From IMG/VR virus record IMGVR_UViG_3300031918_000015, positions 55,890 to 75,889 of that record: DNA of 20,000 nucleotides; one strand, 5' to 3'. A program made the position numbers and the translations under genes. Of the stretch, positions 3,811-19,625 are shown in pieces. Each line of letters starts with the position of its first letter. The stretch's first letter is position 1. This DNA comes from an uncultured virus (IMG/VR IMGVR_UViG_3300031918_000015) (taxonomy: Duplodnaviria > Heunggongvirae > Uroviricota > Caudoviricetes). The notes under the pieces are model-generated. The model was not told the origin of the DNA, ran no database searches, and saw only the letters and a program-made list of their open reading frames with translations.

Positions 3811-3857
3811 GTAATAAAAAATATATTAAATAATCCTATTAATTTATTAAAAAGTTA

Positions 3858-3887
3858 TTGACAGATATATAAGTCATGACTTATAAT
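3858..3887 (+). promoter_or_regulatory. Sigma-A promoter P4 containing palindrome TATAAGTCATGACTTATA (3868-3885)
   Basis: TTGACA (3858-3863), 18 nt, TATAAT (3882-3887); perfect 18-bp palindrome. Confidence 0.8.
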
Positions 3888-6524: not shown

Positions 6525-7061
6525 ATGAGAACAATAAGAGGATTAATTAAAAGTGCAGTAATAACAGGAGTAATCACAATAATGACAGTTATACCAACTA
6601 TGGCAGATACAAACGATTCAAGTATATTAAATCATTATACTAACTCTAAAGGCGATGTAGTAACAGTATATAAAGATAAGACAACGTATATTAATAGTGA
6701 TGTAAATATTCAATCCTTAGATTATTTAGATAATTCTGTTACAATTGAAAAAGATAGCCATTTATATAAGTTTTATGTAGACGAGCCAAGAGAATATTAC
6801 TTGAATGAAGCTATTAACATTACTTTTAACAATAATAATAATAAAATAGTAGATTGTGTAGTTGATAATCAACCGACTATATATAATACCACTATAGACT
6901 CAATACAGGGCAATATAGCGACTTTAGATGTGAATGGTAATAAATACACGTTTGAAAATGAAGAAGGTTCTGACGGCTGGAATGTAGGTGAAAAATGCAA
7001 GGTTATTATTCAAGATGGTAAACTATTAGAAGTTAGACCGATTCCACTTGCTGAGAGATAA
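6525..7061 (+). CDS. Putative exported protein with signal peptide
   Basis: ATG 6525 with AAAGGAAG RBS preferred over 6429; MRTIRGLIKSAVITGVITIMTVIPTMA|DT is a basic, hydrophobic, TMA-ending Sec-type signal; beta-rich repeats follow. Confidence 0.7.
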   Translation: MRTIRGLIKSAVITGVITIMTVIPTMADTNDSSILNHYTNSKGDVVTVYKDKTTYINSDVNIQSLDYLDNSVTIEKDSHLYKFYVDEPREYYLNEAINITFNNNNNKIVDCVVDNQPTIYNTTIDSIQGNIATLDVNGNKYTFENEEGSDGWNVGEKCKVIIQDGKLLEVRPIPLAER

Positions 7062-7100
7062 ATATATTTTATTATTATATTAATTTATTTAAAATATATA

Positions 7101-7129
7101 TTGCAATATCATAAATTACTTGGTATACT
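7101..7129 (+). promoter_or_regulatory. Sigma-A promoter P6
   Basis: TTGCAA (7101-7106), 17 nt, TG-n-TATACT (7124-7129); motif pair at 7075-7089 and 7144-7154. Confidence 0.75.
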
Positions 7130-9277: not shown

Positions 9278-9306
9278 TTGATATTTCTATTAATTTATTA
9301 TATACT
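9278..9306 (+). promoter_or_regulatory. Sigma-A promoter P7 with the repeated motif filling the spacer
   Basis: TTGATA (9278-9283), 17 nt, TATACT (9301-9306); TTCTATTAATTTATT at 9285-9299. Confidence 0.75.
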
Positions 9307-9315
9307 TAATACATA

Positions 9316-9380
9316 GATAAGGAACAAACAATTCAAGCAATCAAGTTAAGACATAAAAATAAATCTAGTGCAACGCTAGA
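9316..9380 (+). repeat. Conserved leader element, copy 1 (homologous to 12242-12349)
   Basis: GATAAGGAAC..AAACAATTCAAG-CAATCAAGTTAAGACA...TCTAGTGCAACGCTAGA aligns with the sequence in and after the hammerhead. Confidence 0.65.
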
Positions 9381-9443: not shown

Positions 9444-9803
9444 ATGGCTACAGATAAAAATAAACAAAATATAAGATTTGCGAAAACAAGTGCATCTCAA
9501 AATAAAAAAGTAAGATATGACGGATTATTAAAAGATGAGGTAACATACATAAAGACAGTTAAGAAACAAGAGCAATCAAGTAAAGACTTAGATAATTTTT
9601 ATAAAACTGTTAAAAGAAATGAAGTTGGAGCTATTGATTGGGACGGTATGGATGAAACTCAATTAGATTACTTTGATTATATTTATAAAAGTAATGAAAA
9701 ACTATTAAAGAAAATTAATAAACTAGAAGATACTAAAATAAAAGATACTGACAAAGTATTAAATATATTCTTACAATTAAATACCAACAGTCAATCGTTT
9801 TAA
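9444..9803 (+). CDS. Hypothetical protein
   Basis: 119-aa ORF with GAGGAAG RBS. Confidence 0.8.
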   Translation: MATDKNKQNIRFAKTSASQNKKVRYDGLLKDEVTYIKTVKKQEQSSKDLDNFYKTVKRNEVGAIDWDGMDETQLDYFDYIYKSNEKLLKKINKLEDTKIKDTDKVLNIFLQLNTNSQSF

Positions 9804-11292: not shown

Positions 11293-11320
11293 GCTACTGT
11301 AGAAGGTAGCTTTCTTTTTT
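11293..11320 (+). terminator. Intrinsic terminator
   Basis: GCTACT-GTAGAA-GGTAGC-TTTCTTTTTT. Confidence 0.7.
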
Positions 11321-11598
11321 ATCCATATTTAATTGAAAACAATAATCAATATTAACTTAAAACTATAATTTTATCTACTGAGGTTTTAGAACCCATAAAC
11401 AATAAAACTTACTCACCACAATGCACCAGAATCAATTTTAAGACACATAGACATATACTAAGACCTATGAAATTTAAAACGCTTATATAGTCGATATGAG
11501 TTGTATTTGTATTAGATTCTATATAGTGTTGATAAATCCAGTATTTTCAGCAATAATAAAATAATTTTAAATATTTAAACAAATTAACAGAAATAGTA

Positions 11599-11627
11599 TT
11601 GTATTATTTTAGATGATATGTTATACT
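11599..11627 (+). promoter_or_regulatory. Sigma-A promoter P8
   Basis: TTGTAT (11599-11604), 17 nt, TG-n-TATACT (11622-11627); motif AAACAAATTAACAGAA at 11577-11592. Confidence 0.65.
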
Positions 11628-11678
11628 TATATCAGAAGTTAAGTAACAGATAAAAATAAATTTAAGGGGTTGGAAGTT

Positions 11679-11843
11679 ATGAAGAGAATAGTTACTAGAG
11701 ATAAATGTGCAAAGTACATAGCAAAAAATAGTTTTTGTACCTTTGAGAGAGCAAAAGATTATATAGATAATGGTGTTGAAAATTTACCAAATAATAATAT
11801 TAAATATTTAGGATATGGAAAGTTTGAAATAGAATATAAATAA
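11679..11843 (+). CDS. Small hypothetical protein, 54 aa (MKRIVTRDKCAKYIAKNSFCTFERAKDYID...GYGKFEIEYK), not in ORF track
   Basis: AAGGGG RBS, ATG 11679, TAA 11841-11843, first ORF after P8. Confidence 0.7.
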   Translation: MKRIVTRDKCAKYIAKNSFCTFERAKDYIDNGVENLPNNNIKYLGYGKFEIEYK

Positions 11844-11897
11844 AAATTAAAGCCACCTACCAGTTGGAGGTTAAGGCATAAAAGGAGATTGGGGATT

Positions 11898-12233
11898 ATG
11901 TTAAATGAAAAATTATTAAAAGCAGTTGCAAAGTTAAATAGTGAATATGTAAACATAGAATTAGGAAATACAAGGTTTATAGATGTTATGGAGATTGAAG
12001 GTATCGGAAAATTTTTTGGAATTGGTTTAAAAGATATAGATGAAAAATTTTAAGCATTAAAAGATACTAAATATGAATATGAAAAATTTTGTGATTTATG
12101 TGATGATGGAAAAGAAGATGATTCAAAATTATTATCTGAGGTATTCGATTATTTAGAAATACAAAAATTTGCTCAATCCATTGTTAATAAAATTGCTACA
12201 AGAATGCAAGAAAGAATTAATGAAGTATTATAA
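11898..12233 (+). pseudogene. Interrupted 111-codon hypothetical gene (in-frame TAA at 12051-12053)
   Basis: AAGGAG RBS; MLNEKLLKAVAKL...DIDEKF*ALKDTKYEYEKFCDLC...RINEVL*; frame stays open 59 more codons after the internal stop. Confidence 0.7.
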
Positions 12234-12291
12234 GTAAGTTTGATAAGGAACGTGAGAGTCGCCGAAACTAGCTGACAGGCTAGTCGCTTAC
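12234..12291 (+). ncRNA. Type I hammerhead ribozyme (U3:A8 core variant), predicted cleavage after C12285
   Basis: Stem I GUAAGU/GCUUAC; core UUGAUAA (12240-12246); stem II closed by G12247-C12263; GAAA (12264-12267); stem III ACUAGCU/GGCUAGU; GUC triplet 12283-12285. Confidence 0.85.
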
Positions 12292-12349
12292 AAAAACATT
12301 TCAAGACAATTAAGTAAGACAGAATTTAAAACACTAGTGCAATGCTAGT
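12292..12349 (+). repeat. Conserved leader element, copy 2
   Basis: AAAAACATTTCAAGACAATTAAGTAAGACA...ACTAGTGCAATGCTAGT, homologous to 9326-9380. Confidence 0.65.
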
Positions 12350-12398
12350 TACATAAATAGAGTATAAATAAGCAACATAAAAGGAGGATAGTTACATT

Positions 12399-12605
12399 AT
12401 GACAAATTTTAATAAAAATAATATTAATAAAAACACTAGAGGATTAGTAGTAGGAGGAATCAGTATAATTATTGCAGTATTGTATCATCAAAAAACAACA
12501 GATAATTTACAAAGTAAATTGGAGTATTGTAAAAGTAAGTTATCTGAAAGTGAAAGATATAAAAACAAATACTATGACGCTATTCAAAACTATGATTATG
12601 ACTAA
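12399..12605 (+). CDS. Small membrane-anchored protein (one TM segment plus coiled coil)
   Basis: AAGGAGG RBS; hydrophobic 'GLVVGGISIIIAVLY'. Confidence 0.75.
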   Translation: MTNFNKNNINKNTRGLVVGGISIIIAVLYHQKTTDNLQSKLEYCKSKLSESERYKNKYYDAIQNYDYD

Positions 12606-12620
12606 ATTGGAGATGATGAG

Positions 12621-12860
12621 ATGATTAAATTTAAAGATGTAAAGATAACTAAAGTAAAAATAGGTGGTACGATAAGTGCAAGTGACAGTGATTATGGAGC
12701 ATATTGCAATTATTATAAAGTGAAATTAAAACATAAACCAACCGGAATAAAAATAGAGTATAAAACTGACTCAGACGATGAAGAAGAATATATAGAATCA
12801 ATTAAAGCATTTGAAAAATTAAATAATTTAGTTGAAAATTTACTAAAAAATAAAGGGTAG
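12621..12860 (+). CDS. Hypothetical protein, weak resemblance to the RF-1 (release factor GGQ) domain
   Basis: GGAG RBS; 'VKLKHKPTGIKIE' resembles 'VRITHxPTGIxV'; no GGQ. Confidence 0.65.
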   Translation: MIKFKDVKITKVKIGGTISASDSDYGAYCNYYKVKLKHKPTGIKIEYKTDSDDEEEYIESIKAFEKLNNLVENLLKNKG

Positions 12861-12980
12861 ATAAAATATCTATTTTATGGTAAAGTTGGTTTTGAAAAAC
12901 AGAGTATAAACGAGTATTTAAGAGTATATGGAAGGTTAAAAATCCATTAAAACAAATTAAGATAAATATGAAAAGAATTA

Positions 12981-13009
12981 TTGACATGATTTAGGTGATA
13001 TGATAATAT
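12981..13009 (+). promoter_or_regulatory. Sigma-A promoter P9 (near copy of P2 in the -10/TSS region)
   Basis: TTGACA (12981-12986), 17 nt, TG-n-TAATAT (13004-13009); TGATAATATAAGGTTnnGAAAYAAATTAATA shared with P2. Confidence 0.8.
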
Positions 13010-18893: not shown

Positions 18894-19625
18894 ATGAGTT
18901 GGGTTAAAGCTTTAAATGAAACTGATAAACAATTTTGTGATGAATGTGCTAATATAACAATAACTTCAACATATCTAATGGAAGAAACAATAAAGGAAAA
19001 TATAGGTATTTTCCAAGCATTATTAATAAGGTTTTCTAAGGATAGGAATATGACAGTAGACGATATAACTAAAGATTTTGATAAATGTTTTGATATTATG
19101 AAATATTTATATATAACAAGTTCAAAAAGATTTCATTTGCTATATGACTGTTATATGGAGGAACTTAGAAGAATATTAAAAAGTAGTAATATACAAAATT
19201 TTAATATAGCTGATAAAAGAATTAAGGTATCACAAATAAAAGCTACTAATATCTTTAAACAATCTATGTCAGAATTAAAAACATTAGGAGATAATCTTAT
19301 AAAAGATTGCATAGATTTTCAAAATGGATTTTTCAATGTTGATGAATTGGAAGAAAACAATGAGAATATGTCTAATGATATTATTGAAAATGTAAATAAA
19401 GATTTTGAGAAAGCTAAAAATAAGTATAATAAAATATTTAAGCAAAGAGATTTAATTAAATATTTAGAAGATAATGGTTATGAATATAAAAATACTGGAA
19501 GACATGCTAATTATACAGATGGAGTAAATACGATTCCTGTGCCAATACATGGCTCTAAGGATCTAGGATATGGATTGCAAAGAAAAATTCAAAAAGAAGT
19601 TGTAGCCCATAAAAATATGTTATAA
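18894..19625 (+). CDS. Protein with a C-terminal HicA-like mRNA interferase domain
   Basis: 'KQRDLIKYLEDNGYEYKNTGRHANYTDGVNTIPVPIHGSKDLGYGLQRKIQKEV' matches HicA (G-x-H, VP.H, DL..G). Confidence 0.8.
   Translation: MSWVKALNETDKQFCDECANITITSTYLMEETIKENIGIFQALLIRFSKDRNMTVDDITKDFDKCFDIMKYLYITSSKRFHLLYDCYMEELRRILKSSNIQNFNIADKRIKVSQIKATNIFKQSMSELKTLGDNLIKDCIDFQNGFFNVDELEENNENMSNDIIENVNKDFEKAKNKYNKIFKQRDLIKYLEDNGYEYKNTGRHANYTDGVNTIPVPIHGSKDLGYGLQRKIQKEVVAHKNML

Follow-up and report, generated by a model that had tools for sequence, protein, structure and literature searches.

A probable type I hammerhead ribozyme with a U3-A8 core pair in an intergenic position of an uncultured phage

The DNA under study, referred to here as the window, is the final 20 kb of a 75,889-nt virus record (IMG/VR IMGVR_UViG_3300031918_000015; estimated completeness of the record, 31%). 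We propose that nucleotides 12234 to 12291 of its plus strand encode a type I self-cleaving hammerhead ribozyme, in which a U3-A8 pair replaces C3-G8, and that it is one of a large family of intergenic phage hammerheads; on the sequence evidence, we put the probability of this reading at about 0.8. The complete motif is present, it has homologs in other virus records, its three helices and its 3-8 pair covary, and it occupies an intergenic position on the same strand as its neighbors. Judged from these features, this copy very probably cleaves itself. Catalysis, the transcript that would carry the ribozyme, and effects on the stability or translation of the two RNA halves are what we infer from them. 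The U3-A8 variant is not new, having been known in nature since 2011, and the window copy is one more example of its class.

The elements of the hammerhead are as follows (L048 and L450 are related copies from other records, described below).

12234-12239, plus strand: 5' strand of stem I (GUAAGU), which pairs with 12286-12291; the letters are the same in L048 and L450.
12240-12246, plus strand: core strand U3 U4 G5 A6 U7 A8 A9 (UUGAUAA); L450 has CUGAAGA there.
12247-12263, plus strand: stem II hairpin, GG-A-AC GUGAGA GU-CG-CC; pairs 10.1-11.1 and 10.2-11.2 are certain, and the inner register is ambiguous.
12264-12266, plus strand: core G12 A13 A14 (GAA), read from the sequence; L450 has GAA too.
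12267-12284, plus strand: stem III hairpin, ACUAGCU GACA GGCUAGU, with seven pairs and A15.1-U16.1 at its base.
12285-12286, plus strand: predicted scissile bond after C17, with a 5'-OH at G12286, placed by hammerhead numbering.
12286-12291, plus strand: 3' strand of stem I (GCUUAC), from the sequence and the pairing script.

The original prediction had located every one of these elements here, and reading the sequence and verifying each base pair by script confirmed it. Stem I consists of six pairs (G12234-C12291, U-A, A-U, A-U, G-C, and a U12239-G12286 wobble beside the cut site). In stem II, G12247-C12263 provides the closing G10.1-C11.1 pair and is followed by G12248-C12262, an internal loop, A12250-U12259, C12251-G12258, and the loop GUGAGA. 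Stem III runs over seven pairs from A12267-U12284 to U12273-G12278, with pair probabilities of 0.8 to 1.0 and the loop GACA. Stems I and III both appear in the minimum-energy fold. All of the consensus core letters are in place (U4, G5, A6, and A9; G12, A13, and A14; the A15.1-U16.1 pair), and position 17 is C12285; positions 3 and 8 are U and A, differing from the consensus C3-G8 with the ability to pair retained. The helices follow one another in hammerhead order, namely, the 5' strand of stem I, the core, hairpin II, GAAA, hairpin III, H17, and the 3' strand of stem I. The layout is that of type I, since loops cap stems II and III whereas stem I is open; the AAG...CAA flanks are conserved as in the phage family.

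Two related copies show which parts of the element vary and which do not. L048 (also L251), from a 43.9-kb record, came from an IMG/VR pattern scan for the core letters and from a scan of metagenomes for the 22-nt block of stem II; the latter returned just two records, identical to the window copy and to L048. Further copies identical to that of the window are L099, L250, and L005/L006. A 40-nt block that begins at the stop codon and ends with GAAAC is common to L048 and the window, so that core and stem II are equal letter for letter. Stem III of L048 is CUGG/CCAG, compared with CUAGCU/GGCUAG in the window, and its fourth pair has changed from A-U to G-C. In addition, position 1.1 has gone from G to A, which turns the U-G pair 2.1-1.1 of the window into U-A. 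Outside the element, blastn over 600 nt on either side found no match between L048 and the window, and the flanking proteins are unrelated.

The second copy, L450, from a 196-kb record, was recovered by a search with the downstream module described below and not by the core pattern. Its 5' strand of stem I is that of the window and its downstream region is nearly identical, yet its core reads CUGAAGA, placing C3-G8 at the homologous position. Stem II of L450 is a regular 5-bp helix (GUCUU/AAGAC) in which 10.2-11.2 has changed from G-C to U-A; stem III is as in the window except for its closing pair, U-A instead of U-G, and pair 2.1-1.1 is U-A. No similarity was found between the genes neighboring L450 and those of the window. 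To judge from these comparisons, the RNA is the conserved unit, since the three copies have dissimilar proteins on their flanks. At this homologous locus, the 3-8 pair switches between U-A and C-G with the other core letters fixed, as would be expected of a working hammerhead. The assignment to type I made in the original prediction is upheld by these compensatory changes and by C3-G8 at the same locus in L450, and covariation of stems I to III in homologous phages is seen in L048, in L450, and in the family alignment presented below.

Selection on positions 3 and 8 was addressed by IMG/VR scans that used an identical pattern and three-stem filter and varied only these two letters. The loci with full three-stem motifs were as follows.

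C3-G8: 116 of 126 loci among the matches listed; more exist.
U3-A8: 16 of 115 loci.
C3-A8: 1 of 21 loci.
U3-G8: 2 of 44 loci.

The 16 three-stem U3-A8 loci represent 14 distinct sequences, and the other loci are mostly one coding sequence repeated across many contigs. Because the double change is much commoner than either single change, positions 3 and 8 seem to be selected as a pair; together with the C3-G8 relative at the locus, these counts bear out the proposal that the paired change reflects selection. A negative control in bacterial genomes yielded the U3-A8 pattern with three stems in 1 of 119 cases among the matches listed, a marginal one that gave no clue to a host.

A 3-8 pair of either C-G or U-A recurs across the phage family. 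In the 55,952-nt, 95%-complete phage G001, three hammerheads lie about 500 nt apart (L258, positions 956 to 2053) and flank two small genes. Each of them sits between same-strand genes, all three have identical stems I and II, and two carry UUGAUAA and the middle one CUGAAGA. Three related copies with U-A, U-A, and C-G, taken with the counts of double and single changes, amount to a natural test showing that the 3-8 position is selected as a pair. Directly upstream of the first G001 hammerhead, the heptamer GTAACAA stands in tandem in about seven repeats.

Twelve U3-A8 phage hammerheads, not including the window copy and L048, were used to build a covariance model (R1). In 76.5 kb of the record, its sole significant match was 12232-12293 (36.5 bits; E, 1.1e-6; next match, E 0.25), a score that is partly by construction, since the patterns used to pick the family sets fix both the core and the GG/CC closure. 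An alignment (A4) of 87 matches from R1, run on 98 sources, had 98.7% of its cells paired, against 66.3% in shuffles, and a covariation score of 0.80, against 0.16 when shuffled and at most 0.10 with the partners slid; 13 of its 17 pairs have changed on both sides. A4 is fitted to the model, its 3-8 column follows from the choice of pattern, and the constancy of GAA in it is likewise by construction, because the search patterns fixed CCGAAAC. Neither R1 nor a second model, R2, found further copies in the 76.5 kb or in a near-identical 141-kb record, which has one hammerhead copy; R2 is blind to stems II that are not closed by GG/CC, since it missed the known L450 copy.

Could such a site arise by chance in AT-rich intergenic DNA? 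A descriptor scan of both strands of the whole 75,889-nt record returned a single U3-A8 site, the one discussed here, and no canonical-core site. This agrees with the earlier expectation that a plain CUGANGA search would miss it, and Rfam misses it too. As a control for chance, we used 300 first-order Markov sequences, each of record length (75.9 kb). With stems I, II, and III of at least 6, 2, and 7 pairs, UUGANAA had no match in the 300 random sequences, and leaving positions 3 and 8 free at the observed stem lengths gave three, or about 0.003 per 20 kb. A chance look-alike draws some credit from the loose descriptor, under which UUGANAA with stems I, II, and III of at least 4, 2, and 3 pairs occurs at 0.35 matches per random 75.9 kb. 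The absence of matches at the observed stem lengths and the compensatory changes in related copies and family members make it highly improbable.

Besides the circularity of the family sets and their alignment, several results weigh against an active hammerhead. The 83-nt fold is no stabler than shuffled sequences (z = -0.61). Stem II is weak and irregular, with two G-C pairs followed by an internal loop, and the energy model gives its inner pairs a probability of only about 0.1. The minimum-energy fold adopts another register of stem II (G12252-C12262 and so on), at -12.7 kcal/mol compared with -12.0 kcal/mol for the hammerhead drawing. Of the stem II proposed in the original prediction, the outer G-C pairs are certain, whereas the inner AC/GU pairs are disfavored relative to this register; L048 offers no comparison for them because it is identical there. 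A tertiary contact of stem I with stem II, which fast cleavage at cellular Mg2+ requires, was looked for and none was identified. The 4-nt complementarity between loop II and the 3' tail (UGAG with UUCA or CUCA), seen by eye, is within chance. An extension of stem I by UGAAGU (12221-12226) and AUUUCA (12298-12303) had also been suggested; the two strands are complementary in the window but can form in neither of the two relatives (L048 and L450), and we rejected the extension, which would bear on such a contact, as not conserved.

The comparison with Rfam, proposed in advance as a check, also came out negative. A search of the window at the gathering score gave no match, and searches of 251 nt and 74 nt at E of at most 10 gave no hammerhead family; the matches obtained (snoZ169, Lysine, mir-62, and a CRISPR repeat) were noise. 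The canonical relatives help in reading this result. Against Hammerhead_1, whose gathering score is 34, the middle G001 copy reaches 16.6 bits (E, 0.071) and L450 reaches 21.6 bits over the full length of the model (E, 0.0018 in an 81-nt search). Since even these canonical relatives fall short of the threshold, the Rfam hammerhead model is insensitive to this phage group. Surveys that rely on Rfam would undercount hammerheads in phage genomes, since the curated models miss this phage group entirely.

One may ask whether these deviations mark a ribozyme in decay, i.e., a descendant that is now slow or inactive and persists as a leftover with its U3-A8 pair, irregular stem II, and U-G pair by the cut site. 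The poor stem II, with its improbable inner pairs, and the missing Rfam match would suit such a history, as would the inactivity of some core-deviant hammerhead-like RNAs noted in the legend of Figure S7 of Perreault et al. (PMC3088659). In L048, however, core and stem II are the same, stem III is compensated, and the flanks have diverged, a pattern that fits purifying selection. Moreover, U3-A8 occurs in 14 distinct intact three-stem motifs and single changes are rare, and stems II of two pairs are, by the account in that paper, common in active hammerheads. We consider decay unlikely and retain the interpretation of the window copy as a self-cleaving hammerhead.

This interpretation is in line with the published record as far as the sections consulted of the sources extend. 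Perreault et al. describe the C3/G8 pair as covarying to U3/A8 in several natural hammerheads and refer to earlier in vitro work in which ribozymes with such covariation were shown to be active (2011; PMC3088659), in agreement with the original prediction that U3-A8 is a known functional variant. The same paper reports that stem II often has just two pairs, that hammerheads flank prophage genes, and that core variants in phage intergenic regions cleave. With the type I phage and prophage hammerheads (RF00163; PMC3088659), the window copy shares the three-helix layout with an open stem I, the core save for positions 3 and 8, and the location between same-strand phage genes, and U3-A8 covariation is reported there as well. 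It differs from them in its irregular stem II (two G-C pairs, an internal loop, two pairs, and a 6-nt loop) and in being a single copy in a 75.9-kb record and not part of a cluster. RF00163 is matched over its full length by the canonical relatives, below the gathering score of 34, and the window copy has no match.

Two other groups deserve comparison. The canonical relatives match positions 22 to 77 of the RAGATH-1 hammerhead model (RF03152) with 18.1 and 20.5 bits, the latter for L450, and resemble it in flanks and stem I (AAA-ucuua ... uaaga). None of these matches comes near the gathering score of 56.3, all leave model positions 1 to 21 unmatched, and the window copy has no match. The hammerheads of Penelope-like retroelements have the same compensated U3-A8 core, according to the portion consulted of Cervera and De la Pena (2014; PMC4209133), but these are minimal and eukaryotic, with context and helices unrelated to those of the window copy.

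The ribozyme lies between an open frame and two small genes on the same strand.

11898-12233, plus strand: upstream open frame, ending one base before stem I, with an in-frame TAA at 12051-12053.
12399-12860, plus strand: downstream genes 12399-12605 (68 amino acids) and 12621-12860 (79 amino acids), from the list of open reading frames; a ribosome-binding site, AAAGGAGG, precedes 12399.
11529-11771, plus strand: candidate promoters 11529-11557 and 11743-11771, from a consensus scan only, after a terminator-like site at 11293-11310.

The original prediction treated 11898-12233 as a gene, a view that the in-frame TAA does not support. The same TAA is found in identical metagenome contigs, and the 59 open codons downstream of it hold no ATG, GTG, or TTG start before an ATG at 12204. 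It could reflect a nonsense mutation, readthrough, or two peptides. No homologs of the upstream frame were found by PHROGs, by Pfam, or by tblastn of the frame, read through with X, against phage records. Likewise, the products of 12399-12605 and 12621-12860 have no family match in PHROGs or Pfam. When the 79-amino-acid protein was used as a query, nine loci at 33% identity were returned, and the descriptor found a hammerhead-like motif in none of the nine. Between 11771 and the ribozyme, there is no strong promoter-like site on the plus strand (the best, at 12107-12135, scores 9 of 12) and no terminator-like site; past the ribozyme, the first strong promoter-like site is 12981-13009.

This layout resembles that of the family, in which the ribozyme habitually begins at, or a few bases from, the stop codon of the preceding frame (a UAA within stem I in several members), and a ribosome-binding site with a start codon is usually found 20 to 40 nt after the ribozyme. 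We envisage that the window ribozyme would be transcribed within a multigene message, probably from a promoter near 11.5 to 11.8 kb, and would fold directly behind the stop codon of the open frame that precedes it. Cotranscriptional self-cleavage between C12285 and G12286 would leave the upstream fragment, which holds the small frames before the ribozyme, with a 2',3'-cyclic phosphate. The downstream RNA, carrying 12399-12605 and 12621-12860, would begin with a 5'-OH, 14 nt ahead of a conserved leader module. Cotranscriptional self-cleavage of a multigene message has been proposed for such elements (PMC3088659 and the review PMC6765202, in the parts consulted of each), and the role of bacterial and phage hammerheads is described as still unsolved in the section consulted of that review.

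The conservation of the element does not end at the cut site, and the window contains two copies of what follows.

12292-12348, plus strand: module consisting of an A-rich spacer, UUCAAGACA (12300-12308), and the hairpin CUAGUGCAAUGCUAG (12334-12348); conserved in L048 and near-identical in L450.
9322-9379, plus strand: second copy of the module (UUCAAG..., hairpin CUAGUGCAACGCUAG), with no hammerhead, upstream of the gene 9444-9803.

The module, about 57 nt long, is kept although the flanking genes of the three records are unrelated. Its hairpin varies at two positions, solely by exchange of U-G or G-U for C-G or G-C, and the opposite strand would have C-A mismatches there; because the variable pairs are G-U on the plus strand only, pairing is kept in plus-strand RNA. 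A 15-mer of the module has two matches in the window, with 0 expected. In the four records searched, the 15-nt hairpin occurs five times, in four distinct occurrences, three of which follow a hammerhead. The second copy in the window lies directly behind a promoter-like site (9278-9306; TTGATA-17-TATACT). A separate 10-mer, GATAAGGAAC, is common to 9317-9326 and to the core and stem II of the ribozyme (12242-12251).

This conservation bears on another explanation, namely, that the block serves mainly as something other than a cutter, either a structure for protein binding or processing or a stop signal with the downstream hairpin, its likeness to a hammerhead being secondary. Conservation does run about 60 nt past the ribozyme, and the downstream hairpin of L251 was marked as terminator-like when read on the minus strand. 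On the plus strand, no U-tract follows stem III or the downstream hairpin; we rejected the module hairpin as a plus-strand terminator for the latter reason. Furthermore, the variable positions of the hairpin pair as G-U on the plus strand only, and the conservation obeys the rules of a hammerhead, with a fixed core, covarying helices, and a 3-8 position that switches as a pair. Such a noncutting element is, in our estimation, very unlikely, and a self-cleaving hammerhead remains the explanation that we favor.

What the module might do together with the ribozyme can be addressed tentatively. In the window, L048, and L450, the hairpin starts 48, 53, and 50 nt, respectively, from the predicted 5'-OH end; in the promoter copy, it lies about 50 to 53 nt from a start placed 6 to 9 nt past the -10 hexamer. 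Similar distances behind ribozyme and promoter suggest that the cut supplies a 5' end that a promoter supplies elsewhere. It is conceivable, on these sequence distances, that the hammerhead and the following ~57 nt form one cassette in which cleavage determines where a leader or small RNA with a hairpin begins. If a leader, cleavage would mimic transcription initiation, and a mid-operon gene would gain the defined leader that a promoter-proximal gene has, a reading that rests on few, related copies and a consensus promoter match. The module may instead be a small RNA separate from the leader of the next gene, since L251 has a strong promoter-like site (TTGACA-17-TAAAAT) between the two. Synthetic insulators of the RiboJ type combine an engineered hammerhead with a hairpin and thereby fix the 5' end of a downstream message regardless of the upstream sequence. 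If the leader reading were true, the cassette would be a natural counterpart of these engineered ribozyme insulators, an analogy limited to that reading, RiboJ being engineered and the cassette natural. A module found behind either a promoter or a hammerhead offers a handle on whether the cut defines a functional 5' end or merely splits an operon message.

The window has a G+C content of 25%, and its genes are nearly all on the plus strand, the majority without an assigned function; the family matches among its proteins include anti-repressor-like (Bro-N, P22_AR_N/ORF6C, and Rha) and ParB-like proteins. The original prediction placed the ribozyme in an early operon, which is not established given neighbors that mostly lack a known function. 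No tRNA genes were found in the 75.9-kb record, blastn with 11600-12900 found no match among named phage genomes, and the ParB-like protein, used as a query for relatives, returned the near-identical record alone. The window stretch is present in 24 runs, all as DNA contigs labelled peat metagenome, with no RNA run among those listed, possibly the source of this DNA itself, and contigs from four runs showed no variant letters in 11500-13000. In run X10, one contig stops at 12259, and a 40-nt contig of higher depth (202.5 versus 160.9) corresponds exactly to 12230-12269. As this 40-nt contig is the block that is identical between the window phage and L048, its presence suggests that the X10 sample holds both versions.

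Three further observations concern other parts of the record. An Rfam drum RNA (RF02958) lies outside the window on the minus strand (L003 6163-6273, i.e., record positions 25962-26072; 55.9 bits; gathering score, 43; E, 8e-8). Drum RNA was presented in 2017 as a candidate structured RNA without an assigned function (PMC5737381, in the part consulted). A link between drum RNA and ribozymes, which we considered, is not stated in that part of the paper, and inspection by eye found no hammerhead beside the drum RNA; we dropped the idea. At 18894-19625 on the plus strand, a 243-amino-acid protein matches the HicA toxin domain over its last ~55 residues (PF07927, E 1.7e-8; PHROG 353), preceded by a long N-terminal part without a family match in PHROGs or Pfam. 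Finally, an AT-rich element, TATTAATTTATT, recurs at 174-206, 1648-1682, 2620-2654, 3819-3862, and 7060-7103 (repeat families D1, D3, and D4), directly upstream of or overlapping promoter-like TTGAC sites before several genes, and probably represents a common promoter or UP-type element in this phage genome.

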